This document shows positions 31,336-50,718 of a stretch of DNA of 64,000 nt, piece after piece. The notes under the pieces are model-generated. The model had not been told where the DNA came from, made no database searches, and saw nothing but the letters and a program-made list of their open reading frames with translations. The stretch is taken from positions 17,195 to 81,194 of the forward strand of contig JALUCS010000097.1 of the NCBI GenBank assembly GCA_027050205.1, in the 5' to 3' direction. Source of the DNA: a candidate division WOR-3 bacterium (lineage in GTDB: Bacteria > Hydrothermota > Hydrothermia > LBFQ01). Numbering within the stretch: the first letter of the stretch is position 1; each line of letters starts with the position of its first letter. The position numbers and the translations under genes are program-made.

Positions 31336-31582
31336 TACCCCCTTCCAAGGGGGCAATTCTACCCCCGACGGGAGAACCGTCCCCTACTGCATACCGTACC
31401 TTCGCTCATCCAACGTTCTTTAGAACCGGCAAGCAACCCACAGTCCAGCAACTCCCTATTGAGCTTCAGATTCTATCTAAATTACTAATTCGTTCAAAAA
31501 TTATCCTATTTACGATACTTGAAAATTGTTATCAACTTTCACTTGTTGCGGAAACCATATCACCGTTATAATATCCCCGCAT

Positions 31583-33058
31583 ATGATCAGAAAGATCGTT
31601 TCCTACGTTATCATAGGTTCTGGAGTGTTCTTGGCGGTGATTCCACCCTTAAACGCCCAGCTGTGTCCGTCCAGTTGCCCTACTTCCATAGTGAGCGATA
31701 CCTTGAGATTCTGCAGATGTACCATCTATATCGGAGACTCGGCGGACAGGGTCCAACTCGTGACGGATAGATCGGTGACCATCGTGGACGTGGACGGGGA
31801 TGGCCTTAGGGATATACCCTTCGGGGTGTGGGCCTACGGCAACCAAGGAGCCTACGTCCTGAAGCAGACCTCTCCCGGAATTCCGGGTAGTTTTGTAGCC
31901 TATAGGATAAGCTCGCACCCCACCTACGGTATAACGACCATAGGGGACATAAACGGCGATAGCATAAAGGATTTCGCCATAGCAGGGCATTGGGCGAACT
32001 ACTCCGTGTATATGCTCCTATCCGACGGCACGTTCCCATCGTACTACGACACCCTCATACGCCGTCATACGGGTTCGCACAACGACCCCAACAGCATCGT
32101 TGGACACGGAGGATTGATATACTGGAGCGCCTACGACGGTAGTATAAGCTTCTACAACGCCTATACCAACACCCTTGTAGTAAGGAACGACAGCCTCTGC
32201 GGTGACGGGGTGGCCTTCGGCGACTTCAACGGGGACGGGTACGAGGACGCAGCTTGCAGCAATCGGGGATGGCCGAGATCCAACCATGGGATTTACCTGT
32301 ACTACTTTGACGGCTCGTCCTTTTACACTGCTGATACGGTGGATACGACGAGGAAGTGGCAGGGTATATTGGCCTACGATATAAACGGGGACGGGCTTTC
32401 GGATATCGTAGCAGTGGGAGAGGATGCCTCTATATGGTTCAATCGCGGCGGGTACTTTGAGGAGCTGAAGATAGATGATGATCTGTCTATAGGTAGTATT
32501 CCCTTCGCCCGTGTTAATATAGCCGACCTTGATTGCGATGGGGATATGGACATCGTTGCGGCTACGGCCTGCCCTCCCTCCGGTGGGGCCATACTCAAGT
32601 GGTACGAGCAGGTGGATACCACCACGTGGTTGATCCATCCCATAGACTTCGGAGGGAACGCCTGCTCCGGCACTGCCCCCTATCCCTACGGCGTCCGAGT
32701 CGGTCTCCTCAACGAGACCACGGATACGGGGAGGGCCGACATCGTCATAGTGAGGGGAAACCGGAATATCATTGAGGCGTACTACAACGTCTCACCCATA
32801 AACGCCTGTAAGCCTCTGGGCTGGGAGGGAGATCTCGGTATATCGGAAACCCGTCCCAATCCACGTTGGAACGTCGTCCCATCGCCGGACGGCATCACCG
32901 TTATGGCCGCACGTCCTATACGGGTTAAAATATACGACTCCGCCGGCCGGTTGCTGAAAGACGTTAGGGTGCCGAACGTTGCCCGCATACCTCTCCCTTC
33001 GGGGGTCTTCTTTGCCGTAGGCGAGGGGAGGGACGTCAGGAGGGTCGTCGTAAGGTAG
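31583..33058 (+). CDS. FG-GAP/VCBS-repeat protein with signal peptide and T9SS type A-like C-terminal domain; paralog of 22999..24504
   Basis: GDINGDS/GDFNGDG/ADLDCDGD repeats; IYDSAGRLL...GVFF...RRVVVR; ATG 31583 gives a classical signal peptide. Confidence 0.85.
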   Translation: MIRKIVSYVIIGSGVFLAVIPPLNAQLCPSSCPTSIVSDTLRFCRCTIYIGDSADRVQLVTDRSVTIVDVDGDGLRDIPFGVWAYGNQGAYVLKQTSPGIPGSFVAYRISSHPTYGITTIGDINGDSIKDFAIAGHWANYSVYMLLSDGTFPSYYDTLIRRHTGSHNDPNSIVGHGGLIYWSAYDGSISFYNAYTNTLVVRNDSLCGDGVAFGDFNGDGYEDAACSNRGWPRSNHGIYLYYFDGSSFYTADTVDTTRKWQGILAYDINGDGLSDIVAVGEDASIWFNRGGYFEELKIDDDLSIGSIPFARVNIADLDCDGDMDIVAATACPPSGGAILKWYEQVDTTTWLIHPIDFGGNACSGTAPYPYGVRVGLLNETTDTGRADIVIVRGNRNIIEAYYNVSPINACKPLGWEGDLGISETRPNPRWNVVPSPDGITVMAARPIRVKIYDSAGRLLKDVRVPNVARIPLPSGVFFAVGEGRDVRRVVVR

Positions 33059-33795: not shown

Positions 33796-33834
33796 CCTCC
33801 CCGCACCTCCCTACAGGCTTATAATATCCACATC

Positions 33835-34470
33835 ATGGTAGAGACCTTGAGAGACCTGTTCGTACGCGGCGGCTTGATGATGTGGTTCATCCTCGCTGTC
33901 GCCCTTATCGCCACTGCCATCTCCATAGAGAGGTTCTACTCCCTATTCTGGAAAATTCGCGTCAATCCTATAAAACTCGTAGAGCAGGTGATAAAGATAA
34001 TAGAGGAGAAGGGCGTCAACGAGGCCATAGAGTTCCTCGCCAACCAGAAGAACCCCGTCGCCAAGGTCCTCGCCGCTGGCCTTGAGAAGGTAGGCAAGTC
34101 CAAGGTGGTGGTAGAGGAGGCTATGACCCGCAGGGCGATCCGCGAGCTGGCCTTCCTGGACCGTGGAATGATATACATCGCCGCATCCGTTACCCTCGCC
34201 CCCATCCTCGGGTTCTTGGGTACGGTCTCCGGAATGATCAACGCCTTTGACGCCATAGCCAAGGCCGGAGAGGTGGAGCCGACCGTCGTGGCCGCCGGTA
34301 TCTCCGAGGCTCTGATAACCACAGCCTTCGGTCTGATCGTGGCCGCTCCCTTCTCGCTCCTTTACGCGATCTTTATGGACAGGATCAACTCGTATCAGAG
34401 GCAGATAGAAGAGGCGGCCAACTTCCTCCTTGAGTACCTCGCCGAGGCGGGTATAGTCAGGGAGGCTTAG
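33835..34470 (+). CDS. exbB: MotA/TolQ/ExbB proton channel
   Basis: APILGFLGTVSGMINAF and AGISEALITTAFGL motifs. Confidence 0.93.
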   Translation: MVETLRDLFVRGGLMMWFILAVALIATAISIERFYSLFWKIRVNPIKLVEQVIKIIEEKGVNEAIEFLANQKNPVAKVLAAGLEKVGKSKVVVEEAMTRRAIRELAFLDRGMIYIAASVTLAPILGFLGTVSGMINAFDAIAKAGEVEPTVVAAGISEALITTAFGLIVAAPFSLLYAIFMDRINSYQRQIEEAANFLLEYLAEAGIVREA

Positions 34471-34471
34471 A

Positions 34472-34897
34472 ATGGCCATCATTCAACGGAAGAAGATGGA
34501 GGAGGAGGCTGAAATCCCGACGGCCTCCATGGCCGACATAGCCTTCCTCCTCATCATATTCTTCATGACCACGACCAACTTCGCACGGGAGAAGGGCCTC
34601 AAGTTCCTGCTACCGGAGAAGAAGGAGCAGCCGCAGGAGATAAAGATAGCCAAGAAGAACCTACTCAAGATATCCATCAACGACAGGGGGGAAGTATTCC
34701 TCAACGACGAGCAGGTAGACCCCAACCGCCTTGAGGAGGAGGTAAAGAGGCGCCTTCAGGAGAACAAGAAGCTGATAATCCTCATACGTACGCACGAGAA
34801 CGCCCCCTACGGGATGATGATCAAGGTATTTGACGCCGTAAAGGCCGCCGGAGGCAAGAAGGTCGGTCTCGGCGTAATAAAGGAGGAAGGGTCATGA
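34472..34897 (+). CDS. exbD: ExbD/TolR biopolymer transporter
   Basis: SMADIAFLLIIFFM with the conserved Asp. Confidence 0.92.
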   Translation: MAIIQRKKMEEEAEIPTASMADIAFLLIIFFMTTTNFAREKGLKFLLPEKKEQPQEIKIAKKNLLKISINDRGEVFLNDEQVDPNRLEEEVKRRLQENKKLIILIRTHENAPYGMMIKVFDAVKAAGGKKVGLGVIKEEGS

Positions 34898-35301
34898 AGC
34901 TGAAGCGGAAAAAGGAGATGAAGGCCCAGATACCGACGGCTTCCATGTCCGACATCGCGTTCCTCCTTATAATATTCTTCATGACCGTCACTGTGTTCCG
35001 GAAGTCGCAGGGCCTACCCGTCCAGCTACCCTTCGCCAAGACCACCGAGCGTATCCTCAAGCAGCGCGACCTCGCTTTCGTATGGATCGGGCGGAACGGT
35101 AAGGTGAGTGTGGACGACAACATAGTGCCGCCGGAGAAGGTGGCTATAATATTCCGTACCAAAGTTAGCGAGAACCCTACTTTGATAGTAGATATCAAGG
35201 CGGATCAGAACGTTAAGTACCGCTACGTGTATAAGGTTATGGAGGCCCTGCGGGAGGCCAACGCCCTAAGGGTGGTATTTGCTACGAGGAAGGGACAATG
35301 A
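34894..35301 (+). CDS. exbD: Second ExbD/TolR paralog
   Basis: SMSDIAFLLIIFFM and IKADQNVKY motifs. Confidence 0.92.
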   Translation: MKLKRKKEMKAQIPTASMSDIAFLLIIFFMTVTVFRKSQGLPVQLPFAKTTERILKQRDLAFVWIGRNGKVSVDDNIVPPEKVAIIFRTKVSENPTLIVDIKADQNVKYRYVYKVMEALREANALRVVFATRKGQ

Positions 35302-35957
35302 AGGAGAAGGACAAGAAGAGCCTTGTGAAGAAGATCTTCCTCGAGAGCGAGCTTGAGGAAGAGTATACGAGGGACCTTAACGTGGCCTTCACTCTATCTC
35401 TGCTTCTGGCCATAGGGGCTTTCCTCTTCGTAAAGGGTTGTAAGATGGAAAGCTACAAGCCTAAGAAGGCTCAAGAGACCGTCCTTGAGCAGATAGACAT
35501 CCAGACCCAATTTGAGGAGCCACCGCCTCCACCTCCGAAGCCCAAGGTGGCCCTGCCGGAGGAGGTGGAAGAGGTGGAGAGCGAGGCCGAACAGGACACC
35601 ATAAACATAGCCGAGACGGTGGAGTTTGACGAGGATAAGGAACCTCCTCCGCCCCCTCCTCCGAAGGTGTTTGAGGTTTTTGACGTGGACGAACCTCCGG
35701 AGCCGGTTGTGAACGTCCAGCCGGAGTACCCGGAGATAGCCCGTCAGGCCGGTCTTGAGGGCAAGGTGTTGGTGGAGGCCGTGATAGACGAGAACGGGAA
35801 CGTGATAGACGCCCGCATAAAGTACTCCGACAACGAGATCTTCAACGACGCCGCCCTAGCCGCCATGCGCAAGATGAAGTTCAAGCCGGCGAAACAGAAG
35901 GGCATACCCGTAAAGGTGAGGATAATACAGCCCTTCATCTTCAAGCTAAGGAGGTAA
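35298..35957 (+). CDS. tonB: Energy transducer TonB
   Basis: N-terminal TM, poly-Pro spacer, C-terminal PEYPEIARQAGLEGKV...FKPAKQKG domain. Confidence 0.93.
   Translation: MKEKDKKSLVKKIFLESELEEEYTRDLNVAFTLSLLLAIGAFLFVKGCKMESYKPKKAQETVLEQIDIQTQFEEPPPPPPKPKVALPEEVEEVESEAEQDTINIAETVEFDEDKEPPPPPPPKVFEVFDVDEPPEPVVNVQPEYPEIARQAGLEGKVLVEAVIDENGNVIDARIKYSDNEIFNDAALAAMRKMKFKPAKQKGIPVKVRIIQPFIFKLRR
35751..35866 (+). repeat. 116-bp direct repeat, copy 1 (TonB CTD core); copy 2 at 36147..36262
   Basis: Copies identical except GTG vs ATC at one codon (2 mismatches by eye). Confidence 0.9.
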
Positions 35958-35960
35958 AAC

Positions 35961-36368
35961 ATGAGGCGCTTCTTAATAGGGCTTCTGGCCCTGACGATAA
36001 GCATACCATCCTTCGCGGTGTATGCCGCGAAGCAGCAGAGTGCAGGTAGGTCCGGTGCCACGGTTTTGGGAGCCGACGAGGTGGATAAGGCGCCGGAGGT
36101 CATACACTACGTTGCCCCAAAGTATCCGAAAGCGGCACTTGAAAAAGGTCTTGAGGGCAAGGTGTTGGTGGAGGCCATCATAGACGAGAACGGGAACGTG
36201 ATAGACGCCCGCATAAAGTACTCCGACAACGAGATCTTCAACGACGCCGCCCTAGCCGCCATCAAGCAGACGAAGTTCAAGCCCGCCCTGGTGAACGGCC
36301 ACCCCGTCAAGGTCAAGATAACCGTACCCTTCGTATTTAGGCTGAAGGAGAACGGGGAGAGTAAATGA
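35961..36368 (+). CDS. Stand-alone TonB C-terminal domain protein with signal peptide
   Basis: MRRFLIGLLALTISIPSFA signal; no Pro-rich spacer; CTD nearly identical to the upstream TonB. Confidence 0.85.
   Translation: MRRFLIGLLALTISIPSFAVYAAKQQSAGRSGATVLGADEVDKAPEVIHYVAPKYPKAALEKGLEGKVLVEAIIDENGNVIDARIKYSDNEIFNDAALAAIKQTKFKPALVNGHPVKVKITVPFVFRLKENGESK
36147..36262 (+). repeat. 116-bp direct repeat, copy 2
   Basis: Matches 35751..35866. Confidence 0.9.
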
Positions 36369-36393
36369 GAGGCTTTTAAAGAAGGAGGCGAAT

Positions 36394-39300
36394 ATGAAAC
36401 GTTTCTTAGCGGGACTCTTTGGCCTGCTTGTGGCCCTACCGCTCTTCGGACAGTACGGAAAGATAGCGGGTAGGGTAGTCAGCGCCGAAAGTGGCGAGCC
36501 GATACCGGCCGCCGTCGTCAGGATCGTGAGCGGTCCTGCCAAGGGCGGGACCTACGCGGACGAGAACGGGTACTACGTCCTCTTGAGGCTCCCCCCCGGA
36601 ACCTACACCCTTGAGGCCAGAGCCATAGGGTACAAGCCACAGATAGTGAAGAACGTTGTGGTAGATGCCGACCACACCACCGAAGTCAACTTCAGCCTCC
36701 CCTCCAAGGCCATCAAGGTCAAGGCGGTGGTCGTAGAGGCGAAGGAGAAGATCATAAAGAAAGACGAAACGGAGAGCAAGGCCGTAGTAAAAGGTGAAAA
36801 CATTCAGAACATACCCGTCGCCTCACTGGAGCAGGCCATATCGCTCTCCTCCGGTGTCAGGGTCAGCGGCGGTGTGATACAGGTGCGCGGTGGTCGTCCC
36901 GGTGAGGTGTCCTACGTCGTAGACGGTGTGGAGGTAACGGATCCCTACACCGGGTACCAGAGCGTAGACCTCCCCCTGAACGCCATTCAGGAGGCCTCCG
37001 TCAGTAAGGGTGGCTTCGGTGCCGAGTACGGTTCCGCCTCCTCCGGTGTGATACAGGTCGCCACCCGTGAGGGTACCGACAAGTACGAGTTCTCCCTCCA
37101 GCTCTTCTCCAGCGTCGGAATGGGCGGCTTCTTCAATACGAACGTGGGCGACCCCTACATGAAGTACTTCCAGCCCCCCTACTTCTACGGTGGAGACAAG
37201 TACAAGAAGAGCGCCACCCAGACCGGTACCGAGTACTGGAAGGAGCTGGTGAGTTTTGATGAAAATAGGGCGAAAGTTTATCAGGATAATGTGGATGAAT
37301 TTTCCAAAAAGGACCCCTACTTTGCCGACTTCGCCACCTACTTCGTTGGCAGGGATTACTTCAAATATCCCTGGCGGGAGAACTACTTCCGGCCCATAAT
37401 CGGTATAGGTGGTCCCATCCTTCCCTTCTACGACGCCCTTCGTTTCTACCTCTCCTACGATTACACCACCACCCAAGGGACATTCCAAAACAGCATGAGA
37501 AAGGAAGGCTCCTACCAGTTCAAGATCTCGTGGTTCGTCACTCCTAAGGTCAAGCTCTTCTTCGGAAGCGTAGGTACGGACGGTGAGTACGCCTTCGGTT
37601 TCCGACCCGACTGGAGGCTCCTACTCCGCCGCCTGCCTGTCATAGAGTCCAAGAACAGGCAGTTCGCTGCTGGGGTCAACTACGCCCCCAGCCCCAAGTC
37701 CTACCTTGAACTCAGGTTTGGATACTTCAACACCTACCGCCTCTATCTGCCCTTCATAGACATAGACATGGACGGGGTCGCGGACTTCACGGATCGCGAC
37801 GGTGACCTCCTCGTTGAGGTGGACCCCGACATGCTCAAGCTCATCGGTCGCGCCCTTGATCCCAACCTCATCCACGAGGACAAAGGCGATTGGGTAGAGC
37901 TTCGTACCTTCTGGTGGGAGACCCCTCCGCAGGGTTATTACCCCACCTTCGTTAAAGGAACAAAGAAACAGAACTACTACCTCGGCGTGGTTAAGGGTAC
38001 GAACGACACCGTCCTCATAGCCTACGGCGATACCCTCTACGATAGCAACGGCAACCCCGTGGAGGTTGATACTGTTTTCCGGGTTAAGAACTGCTACGTC
38101 CCTGCTGAAGGTAAAGTTAAGGCCTGCACTACTAAGATTGCCTTCTCCAATCTCTACACCCCCGAACCCTACACGTGGCCGAGATGGGTCTTCTACACTC
38201 GCAACACGAAGACCTGGAGTACCCGTCTGGACTTCCTCTCGCAGGATCCCTTCGGCCTTAAAGGACACGAGTTCAAGACGGGGTTTGAGTTTTACAAGTA
38301 CGACATAAAGCAGACGGACGTTGACTACGCCTCCGGTGGAAACATCTACATGGACTTAGTAGATGCCCAACCCTACAAGGGGGCGTACTACATCCGCGAT
38401 AAGATGGAGTTTGAGGGCTTCATAGCCAACGTGGGCTTCCGGTTTGACTACTACAACCCCAACGCCTGGGTGCCGGGTGACTTCCTGAACCCCGTAAAGG
38501 ACCTGAACCTTGCCCAGATGGGACCGATATTCAACAGAGACTCCTCCTGGTGGTATCACGACAAGACTACAAGGGACACCTTCTTCCTCCGGGATCCCAA
38601 GAGGGTAAGCCCCACCTTCTACGTTAGCCCCCGTATCGGTATATCCCACCCTATATCCGAAAACGACGTTCTCCACTTCACCTACGGCCACTACTTCCAG
38701 GTGCCGAGACTCCGGTGGCTCTTCTCCAACCAGTACTGGTTCTTCACGGGTGCCTTCAACATAATAGGTAATCCATCCCTCAAGCCTGAGAAGACCATAT
38801 CCTACGAGGTCGGTATAAAGCACGCCTTCACACCCTACACCGTCATAGACGTAACGGCCTTCTACAAGGACATAGCCGACCTCGTGCAGAGTAAGTGGAT
38901 ATACATCGGAAACACCGGGTGGCAGTACACTACCTTCGTGAACCAGGACTTCGGCTCCGTCAGGGGCGTTGAGGTGAACTTCACCAAGACCCCCGGCGGA
39001 AACAACCCCTACCTCCGCTTCCTCACCCTCAACATAGCATACACCCTGCAGTTCGCTAAGGCCAGCTTCGCCAACCAGTACGCCCTCTACGCCCTCACCT
39101 GGCTGGGTATAGCCCCGGAGTACGCCGAGGAACATTACGTAAGCTGGGATCAGAGGCACGTCATAAACGCCGTGGTGTCCTACGATATTCCTCTCATCAG
39201 GAAGAACCTCCGTATGCAGTTCTTAACGGGTTACGGTACTTCGCTGATATACTCCTTCGGTACGGGTACCCCTTGGTCCCCTCCGCTGCGTAGCCCTCGC

Positions 39301-39573
39301 GACGTCCTTGAGAAGATGAACAGCCTCCGTCTCCCCGCTACGCACAACGTAGACTTCCGTATCTACAAGAGCTTCGGGCTGCCCTTCGGTGCCAACCTCC
39401 GCCTCTTCGCGGACATCTATAACCTCCTAAACGACCGCACCATAGTTGACTACGCCGATCAGAACTACTACTACTACTTCGGCGACCCCGAAGGTCCGAG
39501 CAGAAACCCAACGGTGTATAAGAGGGGTAGGCTCACGAGGTACGGCCTGCAGATAACTTGGAAGCAGAGGTAA
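36394..39573 (+). CDS. TonB-dependent receptor (FCB type, carboxypeptidase-regulatory-like N-domain)
   Basis: Signal peptide; GKIAGRV..GEP; plug VRGGRPGEVSYVVDG and GGFGAEYGSASSGVIQ; GNPSLKPEKTISYEVG; aromatic C-terminal strand. Confidence 0.93.
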   Translation: MKRFLAGLFGLLVALPLFGQYGKIAGRVVSAESGEPIPAAVVRIVSGPAKGGTYADENGYYVLLRLPPGTYTLEARAIGYKPQIVKNVVVDADHTTEVNFSLPSKAIKVKAVVVEAKEKIIKKDETESKAVVKGENIQNIPVASLEQAISLSSGVRVSGGVIQVRGGRPGEVSYVVDGVEVTDPYTGYQSVDLPLNAIQEASVSKGGFGAEYGSASSGVIQVATREGTDKYEFSLQLFSSVGMGGFFNTNVGDPYMKYFQPPYFYGGDKYKKSATQTGTEYWKELVSFDENRAKVYQDNVDEFSKKDPYFADFATYFVGRDYFKYPWRENYFRPIIGIGGPILPFYDALRFYLSYDYTTTQGTFQNSMRKEGSYQFKISWFVTPKVKLFFGSVGTDGEYAFGFRPDWRLLLRRLPVIESKNRQFAAGVNYAPSPKSYLELRFGYFNTYRLYLPFIDIDMDGVADFTDRDGDLLVEVDPDMLKLIGRALDPNLIHEDKGDWVELRTFWWETPPQGYYPTFVKGTKKQNYYLGVVKGTNDTVLIAYGDTLYDSNGNPVEVDTVFRVKNCYVPAEGKVKACTTKIAFSNLYTPEPYTWPRWVFYTRNTKTWSTRLDFLSQDPFGLKGHEFKTGFEFYKYDIKQTDVDYASGGNIYMDLVDAQPYKGAYYIRDKMEFEGFIANVGFRFDYYNPNAWVPGDFLNPVKDLNLAQMGPIFNRDSSWWYHDKTTRDTFFLRDPKRVSPTFYVSPRIGISHPISENDVLHFTYGHYFQVPRLRWLFSNQYWFFTGAFNIIGNPSLKPEKTISYEVGIKHAFTPYTVIDVTAFYKDIADLVQSKWIYIGNTGWQYTTFVNQDFGSVRGVEVNFTKTPGGNNPYLRFLTLNIAYTLQFAKASFANQYALYALTWLGIAPEYAEEHYVSWDQRHVINAVVSYDIPLIRKNLRMQFLTGYGTSLIYSFGTGTPWSPPLRSPRDVLEKMNSLRLPATHNVDFRIYKSFGLPFGANLRLFADIYNLLNDRTIVDYADQNYYYYFGDPEGPSRNPTVYKRGRLTRYGLQITWKQR

Positions 39574-39584
39574 GGAGGTAGAAA

Positions 39585-41918
39585 ATGAAGAGGTACGCTT
39601 TGCTCTTATCGTTGACAGCTCTAGCCCTCCCGCTCTGGGGTAGGGATAAGGTCCCCAGAGGCAACGCGGGAGACTTCCGCGTCCTGGCCACTTCGGACAA
39701 ACAGTACGTGGTCTCCGTAGGGGACGTATGGACGACCTTCACCAACTACGGTGAGCATGGGGACGCTAACCTGATACTTCCCGGGTACAGTAGGCCCGGA
39801 AACACTCCGGGGCAGAACGTGTACTACCTCTGGGACGGGCGAGTCTGGATAGCAGCCTTCTTCCAGGGGAACAAGTACGTGACCGTTTACGACTACGGGG
39901 TCAAGGAGTGGTCCCCGAGCCCGGACAACGGTCCCACCGGGTTCGCCTTCATCGGGGCGGACAAGTCCTTCCTTGACGTTGAGGCCCGCTATCAGGACTT
40001 CAAGAACGACACCAGAAACAGCGGGCGACACACCGGTCTCAAGGTGATAGAGAGGCTCCTCTCCTGGCCCCACGACCCCTACAACCAGTTCTTCGCTTAC
40101 GAGATGGGTATAACCTTCGTCAAAGACTCCTTTGACATATCCGACAACAAGCCCGACTCCCTGCAGATATACGTAGCCTGGACTTACGACGCCGACGTCT
40201 GCGGTGCGGACAGGGAGTACCCTCACATAGATGACCTGGTCTATTACGACGGCGCGCCCGAGGACTGTAACATCTCCCTAATGGCCCACCCTATGGGATG
40301 GGAGGACAGCGTTTCCGTCCTCATAGATACGACCATACACACCCCAGACGACGTACCTGACGGCTACACCATATGGGGTGATGATCCTAAGGAGAAAGAG
40401 ATAACGATAGCATACTACGAGTCTCACTTCGGTCCCGGTGCCCGTCCCGACTCTTTCATGCTGGTGCGTCCCAACCGTGAAAACCCCGACCAGATGGACA
40501 CGGTGTATTACTACTACCTCATCCCCCGCAACACGTCTATGATATACGACTGGGACAACCCCTCCGAGGCCGGAGATGACATCGGAGACAACGGTATGTG
40601 TAAGGGATACATCGGTATGAGGCTCATATACGCCCCGCCGAGCGACAACGACCTCTCCGCCAGCGACGGTCAGGGCGTCGGCTCCCTCTGCCGTCCCATA
40701 ACCCTCGCCAAGAGTACGGGTACTGGGGACAACGTGCGCATAATCTACCCCCACGCCCACCAGTGGTGGAACATAGAGACGGATCCCGGAGACGACAACG
40801 CCCGCTACGACTACATCGTGGGGGATCACCCCGCCACCAGGCCCTACAAGTTCGCCCCCCATCCGTTTGACTTCGGTGCCACGCAGTTTGACTACAGGTT
40901 CCTCCTCTCCACCGGCCCGTACTGGATCCACAACGGAGATACCCTCTGGTTCGTAGTGGCCGCCGGTGTGGGTGAGGGACTGAACGGAGATACGAACAAC
41001 TACTGGTATGGTGGCGATTACAAGCTCGGTCTCCGTCAGCTCATGGATCAGGCCCTTCTGGCCTACTACACCGGTGTCAACGGTCTGTGCGATCCCGCCC
41101 ACCCCTGTGGTCCCAACGAGGCCCCTCACTGGAAGATCCCCATTCCGCCTGTCACCCCTTCCCTAAGCTACGGTCCCTCCGGCGACTCCGTCATCCTCAT
41201 ATGGGACAAGAAGGCCGAGTACACCATAGACCCCATCAAGAAGGAGATAGACTTCATGGGGTACGCCATATACCGTGCCAAGTTCGGTCCCAAGTTCAAC
41301 AACCCTCCGGTTAAGATCCTCATAGACGCCGACAAGGACCCCGCCCTCATAGACTCCGTGAGGAACTACTGGATAAGCTACTGGCAGAAGGTCGCGAACG
41401 TAGATGTGAGCGATCGGATAGAGGTCAAGTCCTTCAGGGGGCAGAACACTTACATAGACAAGAACCCTCCGAAGGGCTATCCTCTCTACTACGCCGTTAC
41501 GGCCTTTGACTGGGAGCCGGCCATACACGCCAGCCTTGAGTCCTCTGCCAACAACTACCTGAAGAGTGCGGACGGATCTCCCAAGCCCATTTACGTCGGT
41601 GGTCCCGCCGGCGGGAGCGATTGGACCAAACAGGTCGTCATAGCGCCCAACCCGGTCTACGGCTCTACGAAGTGGTCCGCCACTGGTATTACCCCCGAGA
41701 TCAAGTTCTTCAACGTCCCGGCCTCTGCTCGTATAGACATATACTCCTTCACGGGGGACCACATCAAGACCTTATACAACAACCTTCCCACCACCGGTGC
41801 CGTCTCCTGGAACCTCCTGACGCCCCAGGGCCGTATGGTATCGCCCGGAATCTACTTTGTGCGCATCGTGGATAAGGACGGCAACACGTACTACGGCAAG
41901 TTCGTGGTACTTAGATAG
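39585..41918 (+). CDS. Receptor-associated exported protein with FN3-like and FlgD-Ig/T9SS-like C-terminal domain
   Basis: Signal peptide; TNYG..G...YLWDGRVW; WDKKAEYTIDP..DFMGYAIYR; PNPVY...IYSFTG...WNL...GIYFV..GKFVVLR. Confidence 0.8.
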   Translation: MKRYALLLSLTALALPLWGRDKVPRGNAGDFRVLATSDKQYVVSVGDVWTTFTNYGEHGDANLILPGYSRPGNTPGQNVYYLWDGRVWIAAFFQGNKYVTVYDYGVKEWSPSPDNGPTGFAFIGADKSFLDVEARYQDFKNDTRNSGRHTGLKVIERLLSWPHDPYNQFFAYEMGITFVKDSFDISDNKPDSLQIYVAWTYDADVCGADREYPHIDDLVYYDGAPEDCNISLMAHPMGWEDSVSVLIDTTIHTPDDVPDGYTIWGDDPKEKEITIAYYESHFGPGARPDSFMLVRPNRENPDQMDTVYYYYLIPRNTSMIYDWDNPSEAGDDIGDNGMCKGYIGMRLIYAPPSDNDLSASDGQGVGSLCRPITLAKSTGTGDNVRIIYPHAHQWWNIETDPGDDNARYDYIVGDHPATRPYKFAPHPFDFGATQFDYRFLLSTGPYWIHNGDTLWFVVAAGVGEGLNGDTNNYWYGGDYKLGLRQLMDQALLAYYTGVNGLCDPAHPCGPNEAPHWKIPIPPVTPSLSYGPSGDSVILIWDKKAEYTIDPIKKEIDFMGYAIYRAKFGPKFNNPPVKILIDADKDPALIDSVRNYWISYWQKVANVDVSDRIEVKSFRGQNTYIDKNPPKGYPLYYAVTAFDWEPAIHASLESSANNYLKSADGSPKPIYVGGPAGGSDWTKQVVIAPNPVYGSTKWSATGITPEIKFFNVPASARIDIYSFTGDHIKTLYNNLPTTGAVSWNLLTPQGRMVSPGIYFVRIVDKDGNTYYGKFVVLR

Positions 41919-41928
41919 GAGGTAGAAA

Positions 41929-42915
41929 ATGATCCTGTGGATGCTTGTCCTTCAGTACGGCGAGAGGAATTACAACCCTTTCGCCAAGGTAGGAGTTGCG
42001 GGAAGTAAGTTCCTCCAGCTCTATACCTCCCCCAAGGTGGGTGCTATGGGGGAGGCCTCCGTCAGCTACTTCACGGACGACCCCCTACTAATGGTGAACA
42101 ACCCCGCCTCCGCCATGTTTATGAACAGCAAGGCTGTAGGTGTGGGGTTCATGCCCTACTGGGTCCAGACCTACGTCACGGATATAGCATACATCCACCC
42201 CCGCGGTAGGTTCAAGTTCGGTGGGTACCTCCACGCGGCCACATCCCTCGGATTCAAACACACCGTAGTTACGGACGACGGCTACGAAGAGCAGGGGACG
42301 TTTAACTACACCGGTATGGCCATGGCCTTCGTTATGGGTGCCCGCCTGACCGACAAGTTCTCCGTGGCCCTCGCCCCTAAGCTCATATACGAGGGTTTTG
42401 GCTCCTTTACGAATACCTACGCCTTCGCTGTAGATGTCGGGACGGTGTTTGAAACCGGATGGCACGGTGTAAACATCGGAATGACCGTCCAGAACTTCGG
42501 GACGGACCCGAGGCTCTCTGGAAATTACGTAATCTACAGCTTTACAGGAAACGAGGTGGTTGAGGATACTGTTCCCTACAAGGCCTATAACCTTCCGCTG
42601 ACCTTCAGGGCCGGCCTCTCCTTTGACGTATTCCGCAGGTCCTACCACGCCCTCATAGGGGTACTTGAGGTCAATCACCCCAACGACAACGCCGAGTCCT
42701 ACAACCTGGGTTTCCAGTACTCCTACGCCGATATGTTCTTCCTCCGTCTGGGCAAGAAGTTCCGCGGAGGGTTCAACTGGGTATCCGACTCCCACGACGA
42801 GGTCTTCAACTTCGGCTTCGGCCTGAAGTTCGCCAGTATGTCCTTTGACTACGCGTACACCGTAAACTACCGCATGCCGGACGTCAGCAGGTTCGGTCTC
42901 GTATATACCTTTTAA
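41929..42915 (+). CDS. porV: PorV/PorQ-family outer-membrane beta-barrel
   Basis: KVGVAGSKFL...KVGAMGEA...NNPA N-terminal signature; AVDVGT and LPLTFRAG motifs; C-terminal FDYAY...RFGLVYTF. Confidence 0.85.
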   Translation: MILWMLVLQYGERNYNPFAKVGVAGSKFLQLYTSPKVGAMGEASVSYFTDDPLLMVNNPASAMFMNSKAVGVGFMPYWVQTYVTDIAYIHPRGRFKFGGYLHAATSLGFKHTVVTDDGYEEQGTFNYTGMAMAFVMGARLTDKFSVALAPKLIYEGFGSFTNTYAFAVDVGTVFETGWHGVNIGMTVQNFGTDPRLSGNYVIYSFTGNEVVEDTVPYKAYNLPLTFRAGLSFDVFRRSYHALIGVLEVNHPNDNAESYNLGFQYSYADMFFLRLGKKFRGGFNWVSDSHDEVFNFGFGLKFASMSFDYAYTVNYRMPDVSRFGLVYTF

Positions 42916-42927
42916 GGAGGTAGTGAA

Positions 42928-45723
42928 ATGAAACGGTTTGCGATAGCCCTTGGTCTCTTAGGCGCTACACCCCTTATGGGGGTAGATAGCGTTGAGGTAT
43001 ACCTGCCCACCTTTAAGCTCATATTCTCCATAGATGAGGTTCCTACGAAGGTTCCCGTCCTGGACTCAACGGAGTACGCGTACATCGCCCTCCTGAAGAA
43101 GAACATCTACGGTATGAACCTCGTTGAGGTGGCCTCCTTCAGGGACTTCCCTCCTGTCGGATGGTCCGCCGACCCCGAGTGGGGTATGACCTACGAGCTG
43201 ATAGAGGGGTCCTACTACTATCCAGCCGTGGTTTATACGGCCACGCCGGCCACCGGTTCCTACTCCCTGACCTCCGCCGTGCTTGACCTGTCCGTTACGG
43301 ACGTACCCATTCCGGACACCCTGACCTTCACCTACAAGCTAACCGGTATGGAAAACGGGGATACCATGTACATAGAGGTCATAGGAAGCGGGGACGACAC
43401 GACCACGTGCTGGACCCCCATAGGCACCCTAACCTCCGCGGACATTACGGATACGATGAGTGTCAGGCGCTTCCAGGTTCTCCCCGACTCCTACACCTGC
43501 GGCACTTTGGACGATAACTCCGTTGTGCAGCTAAGGTTCCGCTTCAAGGACAACAGCAGCCCCACAATGGATAGCTCTAAGTTCTTCGCCCTCTACAACG
43601 TGTATGTCGGTGGATACTGGTACAGGCCCACCGCCAACGACACCATTCCGGACTCTCTGGTGAGCTACTACGTCGGCACGGTCAAGGCTGCCTTTGAGAA
43701 CGTACCCGACAGGATGCTCAGCTTTCTCGGCCTGACCAAGGACGCCCTGAAGACCAAGAGCGCCGACAAGAAGGTCGTCATCCTCATAGCCCCCTTTAAT
43801 ATGTCTGACGTCTATCTGAATCAGAGGTACCTCGGTTATTGGGACGCCTACGACACCCTCAACAGCTACGACCTCATATACATAAACTACGCCAAGCAGA
43901 CGGCCCAGGGTGTCTTCGGCGGGGTACACTGGGATACCACGAAGGTGCGCAGGTATCTGGCCTTCCAGTACGCCCGTCTGGTGGCCTACAGCCTTGACAC
44001 TACCGAAGCTTACAACTACTACCCTGTATGGTTCAACCAGTTCCAGATGGCCATCAAGGCCGCTTGGATAGCCCACAAGGTACTCCGGAGAGACTTCGGT
44101 GATCCTCTCGGACTGGCAGGAGGTATAAAGGGAGGAACGCCGGAGAAGAGCAGTCAGCCCCTCATCATAGCGTCCTTTACGTACGATGGAAAGGTATATA
44201 CTGACGAGTACATCAGCAAACTCCTACCTTGGGTTATCCACGTAGAGGACATCGCCGGTGAATCCGCCGTTAAGGAGGCTTTGAGTGAGAAGGACGTTCC
44301 CTTCTTATGGTATCCTTACCTCGCAAACTCCTTAAACAACCTCATCCTAGGAGCCGGTTCCAACTTCTACAAGGAGGTGGAGACCTTTTACCTCAAGGAG
44401 TTGGGTGCTGGTCAGACTTGGGACGATGCCCTCGCAGACTATCCGCACTTTACCAGCGATGACGTCTTCAACACCCTTGACTACACGGCCTCCAGTGCCG
44501 CCAACGTGGTGAATAAGGTCGCCTTCCCGTTTGTGGCTTACAGGTATAGCGTAAACCAGCCCGGCCGTAAGTACCTGAGGTTTGACGGTGCAGACTACAA
44601 CTCCGTGACTACGTACATAGGCGGTAGCCTTGACACCATACCGGGCTTTGTGCTTTATAAGGTGGACCTTAACAACAACACGTGGGAAAGGGTACAGCTG
44701 GACGAGAGGTTAAGGTGGTCCTTTAGGGATGACGCCGGCCTAAGGGGTAATTACTACTTCCTGCTGATAAACGTCGGTGCCACCGCTCTCTACTCCATAA
44801 GCGCCGACTTTAGGGATACTTTGCCGCCTACGGTGGCCGACTTCGGTATCCTCCCCGATGCTGCTGCCCCCGAGTTCATAGACGTCTATCTGTACTCCGA
44901 TAGTAAAGTGTACTTTGACGCCGGTCAGGAGGGGGCGCTCGTGCAGTTCTGGCCGAAGAACGACTCGGCCAAGTACCAGGTCTACAACCTGTACCTTGAC
45001 TACGCCGGCATGGCCGACACCACCTACCTGGTCTATAGGAAGCAGATCAGGCTCTCCTTCACGGATATCTTCGGAAACGAGTACTTCGGTCCTATCAAGT
45101 ACCGCCTCACCCGCGCCCAGAACGCCGCCGGCGTGGACTACATAACAACCCTGACCGACACTTCCGGTGAGTTCTACAAGGTGAAGCTCGGTACGGACAT
45201 GGCTGACATCATACCCGACGTCCTTTCTATGGCCTCCACGGCCGGGGAGCAGAGGTTCTACCTCTTCCCTAACGGTAGGGAGTACGTCTTCAACGTCCCC
45301 GTCCACGCTCAGGTCAAAGTGGCCGCCCAGGAGGGAGACCGGGTCTTCTACTTCAACGGATACGAGTGGGTGGAGGCCCGTTCCTACTACTATCCCGAAG
45401 AGGGTAAGGTTGAGGCCTTCGTGAGCGGCGCCTACCGCATATACGTCGGCAAGGAGAAGCCCTCCACCGCTCCCGTTACCGCCTTTAACGTCAAGAGCGA
45501 GGTCAACAAGGTGATCGTATCCACCCCCGAAGAGGGACAAATCACCCTTAAGATATACAACCCGATGGGTCGTCTCGTTCGCACCCTTATCCACAACGCT
45601 AAGGGAGCCGGGAACTACGCCTTCAGGATAGACGACCTGCCGCGCGGTGTCTATCTCGTGCGCGTGAAGGCCGGTAAGTACGCCCGTACGGTTAAGCTCC
45701 TTGTACTTGGAGGTGTAAGATGA
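42928..45723 (+). CDS. Large exported multi-domain protein with degenerate zinc-metallopeptidase-like domain and T9SS type A-like C-terminal domain
   Basis: Signal peptide; LAFQYARLV...WFNQ where HExxH...WxNE is expected; C-terminus IYNPMGRLVRTL...GVYLVRV...KLLV. Confidence 0.75.
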   Translation: MKRFAIALGLLGATPLMGVDSVEVYLPTFKLIFSIDEVPTKVPVLDSTEYAYIALLKKNIYGMNLVEVASFRDFPPVGWSADPEWGMTYELIEGSYYYPAVVYTATPATGSYSLTSAVLDLSVTDVPIPDTLTFTYKLTGMENGDTMYIEVIGSGDDTTTCWTPIGTLTSADITDTMSVRRFQVLPDSYTCGTLDDNSVVQLRFRFKDNSSPTMDSSKFFALYNVYVGGYWYRPTANDTIPDSLVSYYVGTVKAAFENVPDRMLSFLGLTKDALKTKSADKKVVILIAPFNMSDVYLNQRYLGYWDAYDTLNSYDLIYINYAKQTAQGVFGGVHWDTTKVRRYLAFQYARLVAYSLDTTEAYNYYPVWFNQFQMAIKAAWIAHKVLRRDFGDPLGLAGGIKGGTPEKSSQPLIIASFTYDGKVYTDEYISKLLPWVIHVEDIAGESAVKEALSEKDVPFLWYPYLANSLNNLILGAGSNFYKEVETFYLKELGAGQTWDDALADYPHFTSDDVFNTLDYTASSAANVVNKVAFPFVAYRYSVNQPGRKYLRFDGADYNSVTTYIGGSLDTIPGFVLYKVDLNNNTWERVQLDERLRWSFRDDAGLRGNYYFLLINVGATALYSISADFRDTLPPTVADFGILPDAAAPEFIDVYLYSDSKVYFDAGQEGALVQFWPKNDSAKYQVYNLYLDYAGMADTTYLVYRKQIRLSFTDIFGNEYFGPIKYRLTRAQNAAGVDYITTLTDTSGEFYKVKLGTDMADIIPDVLSMASTAGEQRFYLFPNGREYVFNVPVHAQVKVAAQEGDRVFYFNGYEWVEARSYYYPEEGKVEAFVSGAYRIYVGKEKPSTAPVTAFNVKSEVNKVIVSTPEEGQITLKIYNPMGRLVRTLIHNAKGAGNYAFRIDDLPRGVYLVRVKAGKYARTVKLLVLGGVR

Positions 45724-46997
45724 AAAGGTTTATAACCGTCCTGTTGGTGTCCGGAACTCTGGTGTGGGGTGTGAGCGGGTGTAAGCTGTTCCACGCACAG
45801 GACACCACCCCTGAGGCTGCCGAGATGGGTAAACTCCTGAAGGAGGGGTGGCAGTACTATAAGGAGGGGAAGTTTGACTCGGCCCTGGCCAAGTTTGACA
45901 CGGCCGCTATCATAGTGGACCCCTCCAACATGGAGGCCCACCTCGGTAGGGGACTCACACTCATGAGGAAGGGCCTTTACATTGATGCCCACCAGGAGTT
46001 CGCCCTGATATACACCCCTTACGTCCAGGAGAACGTCTGGATCGTACCTCTCTACGTCCCCGGCGATAGGGAGGGGGTGTTTGATACGATAATAAGCGGC
46101 ACCGACACGTTGGCCTTTGGTATAGACAGCAACGACTTGCTTAGAGCCGATCAGAACAGTAGGCTCATCAGTTCCCCCAACTATACGATCCTCGCCGCGT
46201 GGGAGCTCGGCCCCCTCTTCGCTTCCAACGGTATCTCCTTTGAGGATGCGGACTACGTCTATCTTCCCGTTGACCTCAAGAAGATCATGGTTAAGCCCGA
46301 CACGGCTCTCCTACCTAAGGGCATAGACCCCGTAACCTTTACGACGGCTTTTACCCCCACGACGGCACCTCTAAACGTTACCTCGTCCTCTATCTCCTAT
46401 GTTGATACGGCTGGACCCGTCGTCTTCCTAAGCAGCACCAAGAGCGGTCCCGATAGGGAAACGGAGTTCCCCCTTCTGTTCGACTGGTTGTACGATGTCG
46501 ACACCGCCACCTCAACGCCCATAGGGGACACCATCACCCTGACTATGGTCGTCCTGAAGATGGCCAAGAGCGGTCTCGGGGAGAGGCCCGATATAGTTTG
46601 GATGGCCCTCGCCGCCGACGCCCACACCTACTACATGGAGGCCATAGACAACAGGAAGGCAGCCTACCTCGCCTTCGCCGCCTACCTCCTCTTCCCTATG
46701 AGGGGTGATATACCCTCCGACGCGAACTACGCCGGTATCCCCGGTCTGACCACGGACGACGCCTCCGTCCTAAAGGGCCTCGCCGGAGTGGCCGCCCTCG
46801 GGTACCACAAGGCCGGATGGGTCGGGAACGCTGTCTCCGTCATCCGTTTCTTCGGCGACAGCACCTATCCCAACTCCCTGTGGAACTACATACCCGACAC
46901 CTACGAGGAGATGGTAAACACGGTGGGCTTCACCAAGGACGCGAACGTTAACTATTCGGTCTATAACAGGGCCAACGAGCTTTTCTTCGGTATGTAA
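45720..46997 (+). CDS. Lipoprotein with N-terminal TPR
   Basis: Lipobox VSG-C; TPR GWQYYKEGKFDSALAKF...AHLGRG. Confidence 0.75.
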   Translation: MKRFITVLLVSGTLVWGVSGCKLFHAQDTTPEAAEMGKLLKEGWQYYKEGKFDSALAKFDTAAIIVDPSNMEAHLGRGLTLMRKGLYIDAHQEFALIYTPYVQENVWIVPLYVPGDREGVFDTIISGTDTLAFGIDSNDLLRADQNSRLISSPNYTILAAWELGPLFASNGISFEDADYVYLPVDLKKIMVKPDTALLPKGIDPVTFTTAFTPTTAPLNVTSSSISYVDTAGPVVFLSSTKSGPDRETEFPLLFDWLYDVDTATSTPIGDTITLTMVVLKMAKSGLGERPDIVWMALAADAHTYYMEAIDNRKAAYLAFAAYLLFPMRGDIPSDANYAGIPGLTTDDASVLKGLAGVAALGYHKAGWVGNAVSVIRFFGDSTYPNSLWNYIPDTYEEMVNTVGFTKDANVNYSVYNRANELFFGM

Positions 46998-47013
46998 AAA
47001 AGGAGGTATGAGT

Positions 47014-48663
47014 ATGATTTGGGTAATCGCGGCTTTGCCCAACATGCAGGTTATAAACCTGCACAGCGCTCCCCGTATGAGGGTGGCGAAGGGCCTTATG
47101 GAGCATCTAGAGGCCCGCAAGAGGATAGACACGAGGGTGCCCAAGACGGTTGGCTCCTCGTCCTACACCCCCTTCACCCTGAGCGAGGTCTTCGGCGATA
47201 CCGCCCCCAACCAGTACACCCTTTGGGGGAGCAGCCACCGTTCCCTCTACAGGCACGGCGATACGCTCTGTGTGGCTTACAGGCGTACAGATACCCGTGG
47301 AAGCGGGTACATAGCCGTAGCCTTCTCCTTTGACAACGGCGCTACCTGGACCGTGCGCGAGGATATAAACGAGGCGGCCGGTCTCCTTGATGCTGGTGGC
47401 CGTTATCCTAACTGCGTGGGCTTCTACAACGGTGACCCCGTCGTAACCTGGCCCGAGCTCACGGCCGGTCCAGCCTGGGGTGCTGCATGCGTAGCCGTTG
47501 CCTCTACTTCCCCTTACGGTTTCTGTACTGATCCTTCTTACCAGACCTATCACACCTTCGCCTGGCCTATAGATGCCAACACCTACGCCGTTATCGGTTT
47601 CACATCTAACGACGATATAATCTACTATACCTATGACCTCTCCACAGCCACGGCGAGCTCCGTTCAGATAATCCGCAACTCCGGGACGGGTGAAGGTGTG
47701 TATATGTATGACATAGGTCGCTATCAGGCCGACGCTTACGTCTACGGCTACAGCTACGCCGATTCTGGGGACGTTATCTTCAGGATACAGGGCGACGGTA
47801 CGGTCACCCCTGCAGCCTATCCCGTCTATTACGGTTTCGTTACGCCTTCTGACACGATAATGTACATCTTTGATGCCAACCTCTCTATAGATCTGGACGG
47901 TAATCCGTGGGTGGTTTACATGGCGAAGGATACCCTTAATAACGCCGGAAGTGGTATAGGCCACGTTATGCTGTTCAATCAGGCCGAGGATACGTCCGGT
48001 GCCACGGCAAGGGCGCTCTACATCCCCGATCCCTCCGATCCTTACAGGGCATTCCGTAAGAATCCTATGTACAGGCCGACTTTGGCTTTTGGGCCTGACA
48101 ACAATACCATCCTCGCAACGGTCCTCGTATTCTCTGACTCCGCCAACTACGGATGTCCGACCGTGACCGGTAGCTCTGCTCCTCCCACCGAGCTCGTGGC
48201 CTTCGCTTCCACGGACGGGGGTGCCAACTGGTTCCCTGCGGACGGTGACCTCATAGGTGACGATGCTACCGCCGACGTGATGGAGGACCTGTACCTCCTC
48301 AACTTCTATCCCACCAACGGGTACTACGTCTATCCCGGCGGCGACGTGTGTGTCGTTTATCTCACTCCTCTTGACGGCACCACCCAGCTATACTGTAATG
48401 CTGCGGAGGAGAACGGTGTGGCTCAGGCCCTCATCCACGTCTCCTGCGGCCAGGCCGTTGGCGTAGCCGAGAAGCCCGCTAAGAGCGGTGCCATCACCAC
48501 CGTCTCCGTCCTCAAGGGCGGCGTTGAGGTCAGCGGTCCCGCCTCCATCTACGACGCCAAGGGCGCCCTCGTCGCCACGACCAAGGGTGGCTTCGTCTCC
48601 CTTGATAGGGGCGTCTACTTCGTCAAGACCGGAAACCGCGTGAGCAAGGTGGTGGTCAGGTAA
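47014..48663 (+). CDS. Exported beta-propeller (BNR/Asp-box) protein with T9SS type A-like C-terminal domain
   Basis: Asp-boxes SFDNGATW and STDGGANW; C-terminus IYDAKGALV...GVYFV...KVVVR; ATG 47014 is better spaced from AGGAGGT than 47008. Confidence 0.75.
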   Translation: MIWVIAALPNMQVINLHSAPRMRVAKGLMEHLEARKRIDTRVPKTVGSSSYTPFTLSEVFGDTAPNQYTLWGSSHRSLYRHGDTLCVAYRRTDTRGSGYIAVAFSFDNGATWTVREDINEAAGLLDAGGRYPNCVGFYNGDPVVTWPELTAGPAWGAACVAVASTSPYGFCTDPSYQTYHTFAWPIDANTYAVIGFTSNDDIIYYTYDLSTATASSVQIIRNSGTGEGVYMYDIGRYQADAYVYGYSYADSGDVIFRIQGDGTVTPAAYPVYYGFVTPSDTIMYIFDANLSIDLDGNPWVVYMAKDTLNNAGSGIGHVMLFNQAEDTSGATARALYIPDPSDPYRAFRKNPMYRPTLAFGPDNNTILATVLVFSDSANYGCPTVTGSSAPPTELVAFASTDGGANWFPADGDLIGDDATADVMEDLYLLNFYPTNGYYVYPGGDVCVVYLTPLDGTTQLYCNAAEENGVAQALIHVSCGQAVGVAEKPAKSGAITTVSVLKGGVEVSGPASIYDAKGALVATTKGGFVSLDRGVYFVKTGNRVSKVVVR

Positions 48664-48681
48664 GAACCTGACCCCTCATTT

Positions 48682-48711
48682 ACGCCCCGCCGTACGGCGG
48701 GGCGTTTTTTT
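48682..48711 (+). terminator. Intrinsic terminator ending the TonB/PorV operon
   Basis: Perfect inverted repeat ACGCCCCGCCG-TA-CGGCGGGGCGT followed by a T run. Confidence 0.85.
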
Positions 48712-50680: not shown

Positions 50681-50718
50681 TGGACGATTATAGAGCCGGA
50701 AGTTGGGCCGTGGTGCGA

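Follow-up and report, generated by a model that had tools for sequence, protein, structure and literature searches.

The 64,000-nucleotide stretch of DNA analysed here (the window) comes from a candidate division WOR-3 bacterium and carries, at 33835–48663, an operon of eleven open reading frames (ORFs) that are all oriented on the + strand. The operon encodes a Ton motor, a TonB-dependent receptor (TBDR), an outer-membrane barrel of the PorV/PorQ family and several proteins ending in the C-terminal domain (CTD) of type IX secretion system (T9SS) cargo. The window genome (G000) is a 2.05 Mb assembly, 93.5% complete, of DNA from a hydrothermal vent metagenome. The genes and the signals around them are collected in Table 1. 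Intergenic gaps range from -4 to +25 nt, and AGGAGG-type Shine-Dalgarno (SD) sequences precede five of the genes, namely those for the TBDR, the 777-aa partner, the barrel, the 931-aa protein and the Asp-box protein. A first-pass annotation, made from the letters of the sequence, had described eleven contiguous co-oriented genes with small gaps, strong SD sequences and one strong terminator, and the ORF list of the window and the sequence have confirmed all of these features.

Table 1. Genes and sequence signals of the operon, with positions in the window
Feature	Position	Strand	Basis
TATAAT -10-like hexamer	33820..33825	+	9 nt 5' of exbB ATG; read directly from sequence
ExbB, 211 aa, Ton motor proton channel	33835..34470	+	PF01618 (MotA_ExbB), 101.8 bits
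ExbD 1, 141 aa	34472..34897	+	PF02472, 107.3 bits
ExbD 2, 135 aa	34894..35301	+	PF02472, 89.5 bits
TonB, 219 aa	35298..35957	+	TonB_C, 77.9 bits, residues 141-217
TonB_C-only protein, 135 aa	35961..36368	+	TonB_C, 80 bits, residues 52-128
TBDR, 1059 aa	36394..39573	+	PF13620, PF07715 and PF00593, all above cut-off
777-aa partner	39585..41918	+	signal peptide; beta-supersandwich ~40-515; FN3-like ~520-650; specialised T9SS CTD ~685-777
PorQ-leaning PorV/PorQ-family outer-membrane barrel, 328 aa	41929..42915	+	NF033709, 132.7 bits (cut-off 90)
931-aa CTD protein	42928..45723	+	PF18962 (Por_Secre_tail), 28.3 bits (cut-off 27); TIGR04183, 33.9 bits (cut-off 23)
TPR lipoprotein, 425 aa	45720..46997	+	TPR_16 and TPR_11 matches; lipobox ...VSGC
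Asp-box (BNR) CTD protein, 551 aa	47008..48663	+	BNR, 21.6 bits; CTD, 17.3 bits (cut-off 23); both below cut-off
Intrinsic terminator	48682..48712	+	10-bp stem (9 GC pairs), 4-nt loop, T7

The genes for the TBDR, the 777-aa partner and the barrel form a triplet that is conserved in several phyla. When one genome of each species was scanned with a profile, 261 relatives of the 777-aa protein came up, of which the best 80 loci have been analysed; these come from WOR-3, TA06, LCP-89, KSB1, Calditrichota, Zixibacteria and Marinimicrobia, and a few of the record labels look wrong. Neighbours were counted with hidden Markov models (HMMs) of the families, and only at loci where the contig permits a call. 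The TBDR gene lies immediately upstream of the 777-aa gene at 70 of 73 loci, the barrel gene immediately downstream at 71 of 75, and both are in position at 66 of 69. The order further downstream is conserved as well, with a large CTD protein (700–1560 aa), a TPR lipoprotein and another CTD protein. ExbB was found in the flank at 30 of the 80 loci, all of them WOR-3, and outside WOR-3 no adjacent exb or tonB gene was seen. Within WOR-3, relatives of the 777-aa protein are present in 89 of 272 genomes. The 37 loci fetched around such relatives in this group keep the order ExbB-ExbD-ExbD-TonB-TBDR-777-barrel through the class of the window genome, and keep the triplet TBDR-777-barrel in other classes. 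For the triplet that the first-pass annotation had singled out, the neighbourhood survey is strongly positive, and the linkage of its three genes is real.

A second, paralogous type of triplet was found through the barrel. At E <= 1e-40 the barrel profile matches 255 of the 272 WOR-3 genomes, with scores in two tiers. Fourteen of the 16 lower-tier barrels that were fetched show the same layout of a TBDR (~900–1000 aa), a CTD partner (~1000–1100 aa) and the barrel (340–370 aa), and the CTD partner matches the 777-aa model. Three of these 14 triplets sit behind ExbB-ExbD-ExbD-TonB. The paralogous loci (L143–L156, from WOR-3 genomes G020, G034, G050, G055, G121, G158, G194 and G263–G270) occur in lineages without the 777-aa type and as extra copies elsewhere; some genomes have both types, and the genomes of family f43 have 6–8 such barrels each. 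In addition, a tandem second TBDR-partner-barrel triplet is present at two of the surveyed loci (L084 and L121). The triplet duplicates as one unit.

The 777-aa partner has no Pfam match, and members of its family are publicly annotated as 'hypothetical protein' or 'T9SS type A sorting domain-containing protein'. An AlphaFold2 (AF2) model computed from 28 sequences (pLDDT, the predicted local distance difference test, 82.8; pTM, the predicted TM-score, 0.79) consists of a beta-supersandwich, an FN3-like domain and a C-terminal beta sandwich. In Foldseek searches the N-terminal domain was matched to N-domains of supersandwich type from GH94 phosphorylases and from dextran dextrinase (TM ~0.2), and the C-terminal part to PorZ, PorU and FN3 arrays. 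As a single sequence the CTD scores 21.2 bits against a cut-off of 23, and the family profile does match CTDs. In the PDB this profile finds the C-termini of PorZ and PorU only, which sets the CTD apart, since these are the two T9SS proteins known to keep their CTDs: that of PorZ is kept to bind PorQ, and that of PorU stays bound to PorV (PMC10202324). The 777-aa model matched no other ORF in the window genome, though at least 34 of its ORFs end in a CTD.

The CTD of the 777-aa protein also differs from the other two CTDs of the operon in how it has diverged. In the 777-aa family, mean pairwise identity over the final 78 residues is 45% (46 loci), against 26–27% for the CTDs of the 931-aa protein and of the third CTD protein. 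The latter two families are 25% identical to each other, which is about equal to the identity within each, so that the 931-aa and Asp-box CTDs behave as generic signals; identity of the 777-aa CTD to either is 21–22%. When the two paralogous partner types are compared, conservation is highest over the C-terminal 100 positions (64–93 bits). Distances between barrels and distances between 777-aa CTDs are correlated over 40 loci (rho 0.78), and the partial Mantel rho after control for TBDR distance is 0.52 (permutation p <= 0.0005). Measured in this way against the barrel, the body of the 777-aa protein gives 0.08 and the other proteins give 0.28–0.33. The 777-aa CTD is of a distinct, conserved type whose divergence tracks that of the barrel, and these sequence comparisons fit a CTD that docks on the barrel beside the TBDR. 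An assignment of the 777-aa protein as a PorZ orthologue was considered and rejected; its C-terminus alone matches, and the whole-chain TM-score is 0.12. The paper on structure 5m11 reportedly describes PorZ as two beta-propellers.

The barrel belongs to the PorV/PorQ family, its NF033709 match spanning model positions 4–326 of 326. The first-pass annotation had named it PorV, which was not borne out: the best of the specific models is the PorQ equivalog NF033711, with 71.2 bits (below its cut-off of 220), and the PorV equivalog NF033710 gives 44.4 bits (cut-off 250) and covers the N-terminal half only. A profile of the barrel orthologues matches PorV in the PDB (6h3i_F, E 4e-27). PorV-family barrels have the FadL fold, with weak matches to FadL/TodX. 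In the window genome it is the sole barrel of PorQ type. The barrel is the putative, and probable, anchor of the 777-aa CTD. In the genus and family of the window genome the N-terminus of the barrel (41929–41990) is very short and hydrophobic and has no basic n-region (MILWMLVLQ...).

The TBDR has the architecture of a TonB-dependent transporter, with a signal peptide, a CarboxypepD_reg N-terminal extension, a TonB-box-like strand, a plug (PF07715, 43.7 bits against a cut-off of 23.9) and a long barrel (TonB_dep_Rec, PF00593, 82.1 against 27), and with ExbB, two ExbD and TonB encoded in the same operon. The strand between the N-terminal extension and the plug reads (K/E)xVVVxAK and is conserved, as judged by eye, in about 30 TBDR orthologues. 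With its plug and the conserved VVVxAK strand in front of that domain, the TBDR resembles an importer. The receptor is not a member of the SusC/RagA family, as the TIGR04056 score is 72.6 bits against a cut-off of 368 and covers the N-terminal third only, and no operon protein has a match to the SusD family in Pfam or NCBIfam. Single-sequence searches of the PDB with the TBDR and with the PorQ-like barrel gave nothing useful, and profiles were required.

Components of a T9SS are encoded elsewhere in the genome. The first-pass annotation had remarked that SprA and PorK/L/M/N are missing from the window, and SprA is indeed not in the window. The system as such is not absent, since SprA, a PorU-like protein and a PorV-type barrel lie elsewhere; the PorK/L/M models (GldK/GldL/GldM) remained silent in the whole-genome search, which had no positive control for them. 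SprA is a 1851-aa ORF (G000:C56:13255-18810) with 322.5 bits against a cut-off of 200. The PorU-like protein, on contig C98, is a 1183-aa open frame (1176 aa from the first start) that scores 280 bits, below the 420-bit cut-off, over model positions 5–744 and has an extra C-terminal match. A second barrel of the PorV/PorQ family, on contig C8, leans towards PorV (90.6 bits with the PorV model against 33.7 with the PorQ model). Among 272 WOR-3 species genomes, 262 have SprA, and PorU-like proteins were present in 21 of 21 relatives. With SprA, a PorU-like sortase and a PorV-type barrel available, export of the CTD proteins needs no new route. Co-occurrence of the module with SprA was dropped as evidence, as SprA is near-universal in the phylum and so has no discriminating power. 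Searches for GldK, GldL and GldM (TIGR03517, TIGR03513, PF12081 and TIGR03525) gave no credible match in the window genome and 20 relatives, with models trained on Bacteroidota and no positive control; GldN was not searched. The GldM model was also silent, again with no positive control, in 18 module-bearing genomes of other phyla.

The three genes that follow the barrel encode further candidates for the assembly. The 931-aa protein is T9SS type A cargo by its C-terminal Por_Secre_tail domain, and its CTD is of the generic type A kind. Its AF2 model (39 sequences, pLDDT 81.2) has a low-confidence N-terminal beta region, a helical domain at residues ~240–515, beta domains of immunoglobulin (Ig)-like and ZU5-like type, and the CTD. 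The family profile matches the M1 aminopeptidase catalytic domain of 3cia in the PDB (E 3.7e-4), and also ZU5 domains and gingipain CTDs; in longer orthologues BNR/GH74-type propellers are matched in addition. An iterated search found a core of ~690 aa that is common to the 931-aa protein and to large CTD proteins across phyla. The HExxH motif, which together with a downstream Glu supplies the zinc ligands of gluzincin (M1-like) metallopeptidases, is present in none of 39 sequences (the 931-aa protein and 38 orthologues). The corresponding region reads YLAFQ...FNQFQ in the 931-aa protein and xxLAHQ...VEG in other phyla, which aligns with HELAHQ...NEG of M1 enzymes. From one weak profile match and this comparison of motifs by eye, we read residues ~240–515 as a zincin-like domain that has probably lost its zinc-binding motif. 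At the level of the fold, the likeness is carried by that match and by the helical domain of the AF2 model. In a whole-chain Foldseek search with the 931-aa model, Ig, FN3 and CTD matches dominate and the helical domain is not resolved.

The TPR lipoprotein is conserved in position, the cysteine of its lipobox (Cys21) is invariant in 17 orthologues, and its profile is strongly TPR against the PDB. Orthologues of the Asp-box protein match BNR_2, BNR and Por_Secre_tail, and in most lineages the third CTD protein is of BNR type. The SD sequence of the Asp-box gene abuts the first ATG (47008), so translation may in fact begin at the ATG at 47014. The N-terminus of the Asp-box protein (47008–47060) in the genus and family of the window genome is short and hydrophobic with no basic n-region (MSMIWVIAALP...). 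Outside this genus and family, the orthologues of both the Asp-box protein and the barrel have ordinary signal peptides. Pfam models of catalytic families matched neither the operon proteins nor 18 orthologues of the two large CTD proteins.

Our proposal, to which we give a probability of about one half, is that the operon specifies a TonB-dependent complex for nutrient uptake in which T9SS cargo supplies the extracellular parts and an uncleaved CTD keeps at least one of these on the PorQ-like barrel. In such a complex, ExbB, ExbD and TonB would energise the 1059-aa TBDR, and the SprA translocon would pass the 777-aa, 931-aa and Asp-box proteins across the outer membrane. The 777-aa protein would retain its specialised CTD, which would fix it to the barrel from the neighbouring gene in the way that PorZ is fixed to PorQ in Porphyromonas. 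With the barrel placed beside the TBDR, the 777-aa partner might present the substrate to the receptor or cap it, and the 931-aa and Asp-box CTD proteins and the TPR lipoprotein would complete the assembly. The partners most likely bind the substrate rather than cut it, because no recognisable active site is found in any of them. The first-pass annotation had likewise suggested a hybrid complex in which CTD proteins dock on PorV beside the TBDR as a substrate-capturing lid. The conserved triplet, the distinct CTD and the tracked divergence support that suggestion in part; the export route, the retention of the CTD, the physical contacts, the lid role, the direction of transport and the substrate are what we infer.

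Arrangements that resemble parts of this complex have been described in Bacteroidota. The PorQ–PorZ and PorV–PorU pairs of Porphyromonas gingivalis have in common with the operon a PorV/PorQ-family barrel to which, it is proposed, a protein stays attached by its retained type A CTD, and cognate PorV-like barrels have been suggested to shield CTDs from cleavage (PMC10202324). The match of the 777-aa CTD profile to the C-termini of PorZ and PorU is a further likeness. The operon differs from these pairs in that the body of the 777-aa protein is unrelated, its genes are neighbours and linked to that of a TBDR, and the barrel scores below both equivalog cut-offs. Genes of type B cargo cluster with those of their PorP/SprF barrels, as in SprB–SprF, and the barrel is there the proposed anchor (PMC10202324); the CTD of the operon is instead type A-like, its barrel is of the PorV/PorQ family, and the known PorP/SprF pairs have no TBDR. 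In the BAM complex of Bacteroidota (the machinery that assembles beta-barrels), the FadL-like 14-strand barrel BamG is packed on BamA as a static adaptor and holds the surface protein BamH by its loops (PMC12578637). This is alike in description, with a small FadL-fold barrel on a large barrel and loops that bind an extracellular protein; the large barrel is BamA rather than a TBDR, and the bound protein is a lipoprotein rather than T9SS cargo.

The closest counterparts on the side of uptake are SusCD/RagAB and the 'utilisomes' of Bacteroidota. Both these and the operon have a TonB-dependent barrel with a CarboxypepD_reg-type N-terminal extension and dedicated surface partners for substrate handling that are encoded alongside, and the 777-aa gene stands in the position of SusD. 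The differences are that the operon has no SusD-family protein and its TBDR falls below the SusC/RagA cut-off; that its partners bear T9SS CTDs and not lipid anchors, with a PorQ-like barrel in the unit; that it includes no glycoside hydrolase or active peptidase; and that it is mostly single-copy and deeply conserved, not variable and multi-copy.

Several observations weigh against the uptake complex that we favour. No substrate can be named, and there is no enzyme in the module, unlike polysaccharide utilisation loci, for which linked degradative enzymes are a criterion. The sequence was found in DNA metagenome runs only, and a search for RNA runs was negative. As the sole one of its type in the genome, the PorQ-type barrel might have a general role in the T9SS. 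The Mantel signal is significant, though weaker, for other proteins too; the pairwise distances in the CTD identity and Mantel comparisons are non-independent; and the 777-aa protein is slow-evolving overall, which explains part of the conservation of its CTD. Finally, a module that is single-copy, deeply conserved and, with both types counted, near-universal in WOR-3 (255 of 272 genomes) looks more like a housekeeping system than a nutrient-specific one.

An unlikely alternative is that the operon is a conserved uptake operon with no barrel-anchored complex, in which the CTD proteins would be ordinary cargo, cleaved and then lipid-linked or released, and the barrel would be merely a co-expressed channel or shuttle. 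The generic, interchangeable nature of the 931-aa and Asp-box CTDs agrees with it, as do the FadL fold and the weak FadL/TodX matches of PorV-family barrels, and gene order could be kept by co-expression alone. It does not account for the separate, conserved type of the partner CTD, which is common to both paralogous partner types, for a coupling of barrel and CTD divergence that exceeds that of every other pair, or for immediate adjacency retained across several phyla.

Quite unlikely, in our view, is a housekeeping module for T9SS attachment, in which the roles of PorZ and PorQ would locally fall to the 777-aa protein and the barrel, with delivery of a surface glycolipid to the PorU sortase, and the TBDR and the other proteins would serve assembly of the cell surface and not nutrition. 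The barrel is PorQ-leaning and alone of its type in the genome; no true PorZ was found in 21 relatives, which gave C-terminal matches only; the partner CTD resembles the CTDs of PorZ and PorU; the supersandwich is a fold of sugar-binding type; and the module is near-universal and single-copy. Against this, the body of the partner is a supersandwich that is not homologous to PorZ, as the whole-chain comparison indicates, and the strict pairing with a plugged TBDR, the 6–8 triplets in genomes of family f43 and the presence of both triplet types in some genomes would be unexpected of such a module.

The remaining alternative, which the first-pass annotation had also raised, is Ton-powered secretion, in which ExbBD-TonB and the TBDR would supply either the energy or the channel by which CTD proteins are exported or delivered to the surface, and the PorQ-like barrel would be the receiving shuttle. 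A TonB-dependent transporter, Oar of Myxococcus xanthus, is needed for secretion of PopC; Oar, like the TBDR of the operon, is a long receptor with a CarboxypepD_reg N-terminus; it is tied to protein export rather than import, and the Oar system is not known to involve T9SS parts. Undetected GldK/L/M beside a near-universal SprA would suit such a role, as would the ExbB-ExbD-ExbD-TonB set directly 5' of both triplet types in WOR-3 and a second Ton-like cluster of the window genome that also contains a PorV/FadL-like barrel and a TPR protein. We regard it as improbable, and found no positive support for Ton/Exb-powered export. The silent Gld searches had no positive control and used Bacteroidota-trained models; exb and tonB are not adjacent outside WOR-3; the plug of the TBDR is ordinary and a TonB-box-like strand precedes it; at least 31 further genes for CTD proteins lie dispersed over the genome, unlinked to the operon; and the TBDR had no match at E <= 0.01 to an Oar-named Pfam family (the presence of such a model in the library being unconfirmed). 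It is equally doubtful that the operon represents an undescribed, ancient outer-membrane machine of Fibrobacteres-Chlorobi-Bacteroidetes (FCB) phyla other than Bacteroidota, in which TonB energy and T9SS parts act jointly, whether with the T9SS-anchored partner as a mechanical lid driven through the TBDR or by Ton replacing GldLM for CTD cargo.

All the parts of the operon are of known kinds, and their combination is new. In the literature covered, which left out most subscription journals, we found no description of the TBDR-partner-barrel triplet or of a T9SS in WOR-3. If the uptake complex is as proposed, several little-known phyla would equip a TonB-dependent transporter with substrate binders through the T9SS and a PorQ-like barrel, and not through surface lipoproteins. 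The known roles of PorV/PorQ-family barrels would be widened, and a large unannotated family, that of the 777-aa protein, would gain a functional context.

Other features of the genome and of the operon have also been noted. The operon is not the only Ton system of the genome, an idea that was rejected when a second ExbB-ExbD-ExbD-TonB set was located at C97:12582-15316. This set is part of the Ton-like cluster mentioned above (G000:C97:8179-16265; locus L138), which lies 1–9 kb upstream of the window start and encodes a 182-aa FlgD_ig protein, a 419-aa barrel, an 854-aa TPR protein, ExbB, two ExbD, a 362-aa TonB and a 311-aa protein of unknown type. The 419-aa barrel is FadL/PorV-like (NF033709, 39 bits) and fused to a C-terminal FlgD_ig domain, so that a Ton motor once more goes together with a PorV-family barrel and a TPR protein. 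Elsewhere in the genome, a CTD protein of ~743 aa (G000:C35:6477-8702, - strand) gives, with its C-terminus, the best match of the genome to the C-terminal regions of PorZ and PorU (28 bits). This protein is conserved throughout the family, and its body is not that of PorZ.

Within the operon, the 135-aa TonB_C-only protein consists of an N-terminal hydrophobic helix (signal or anchor), a short linker and TonB_C, with nothing else. Its gene, between tonB and the TBDR gene, was seen among the surveyed loci in the genus of the window genome only (L059), and the protein might be a periplasmic competitor or regulator of the contact between TonB and the TBDR. The exbB gene has no SD sequence on inspection, and since the TATAAT hexamer stands so close to its ATG, its mRNA is probably leaderless or nearly so; a two-hexamer promoter scan missed this hexamer. 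The operon is flanked on its 5' side by a 510-aa FG-GAP repeat protein (31526–33058, +) and on its 3' side by a 684-aa protein with DUF7948 and an SBBP beta-propeller (48710–50764, -), the gene of which converges on the operon terminator, and both products are likely further surface proteins.

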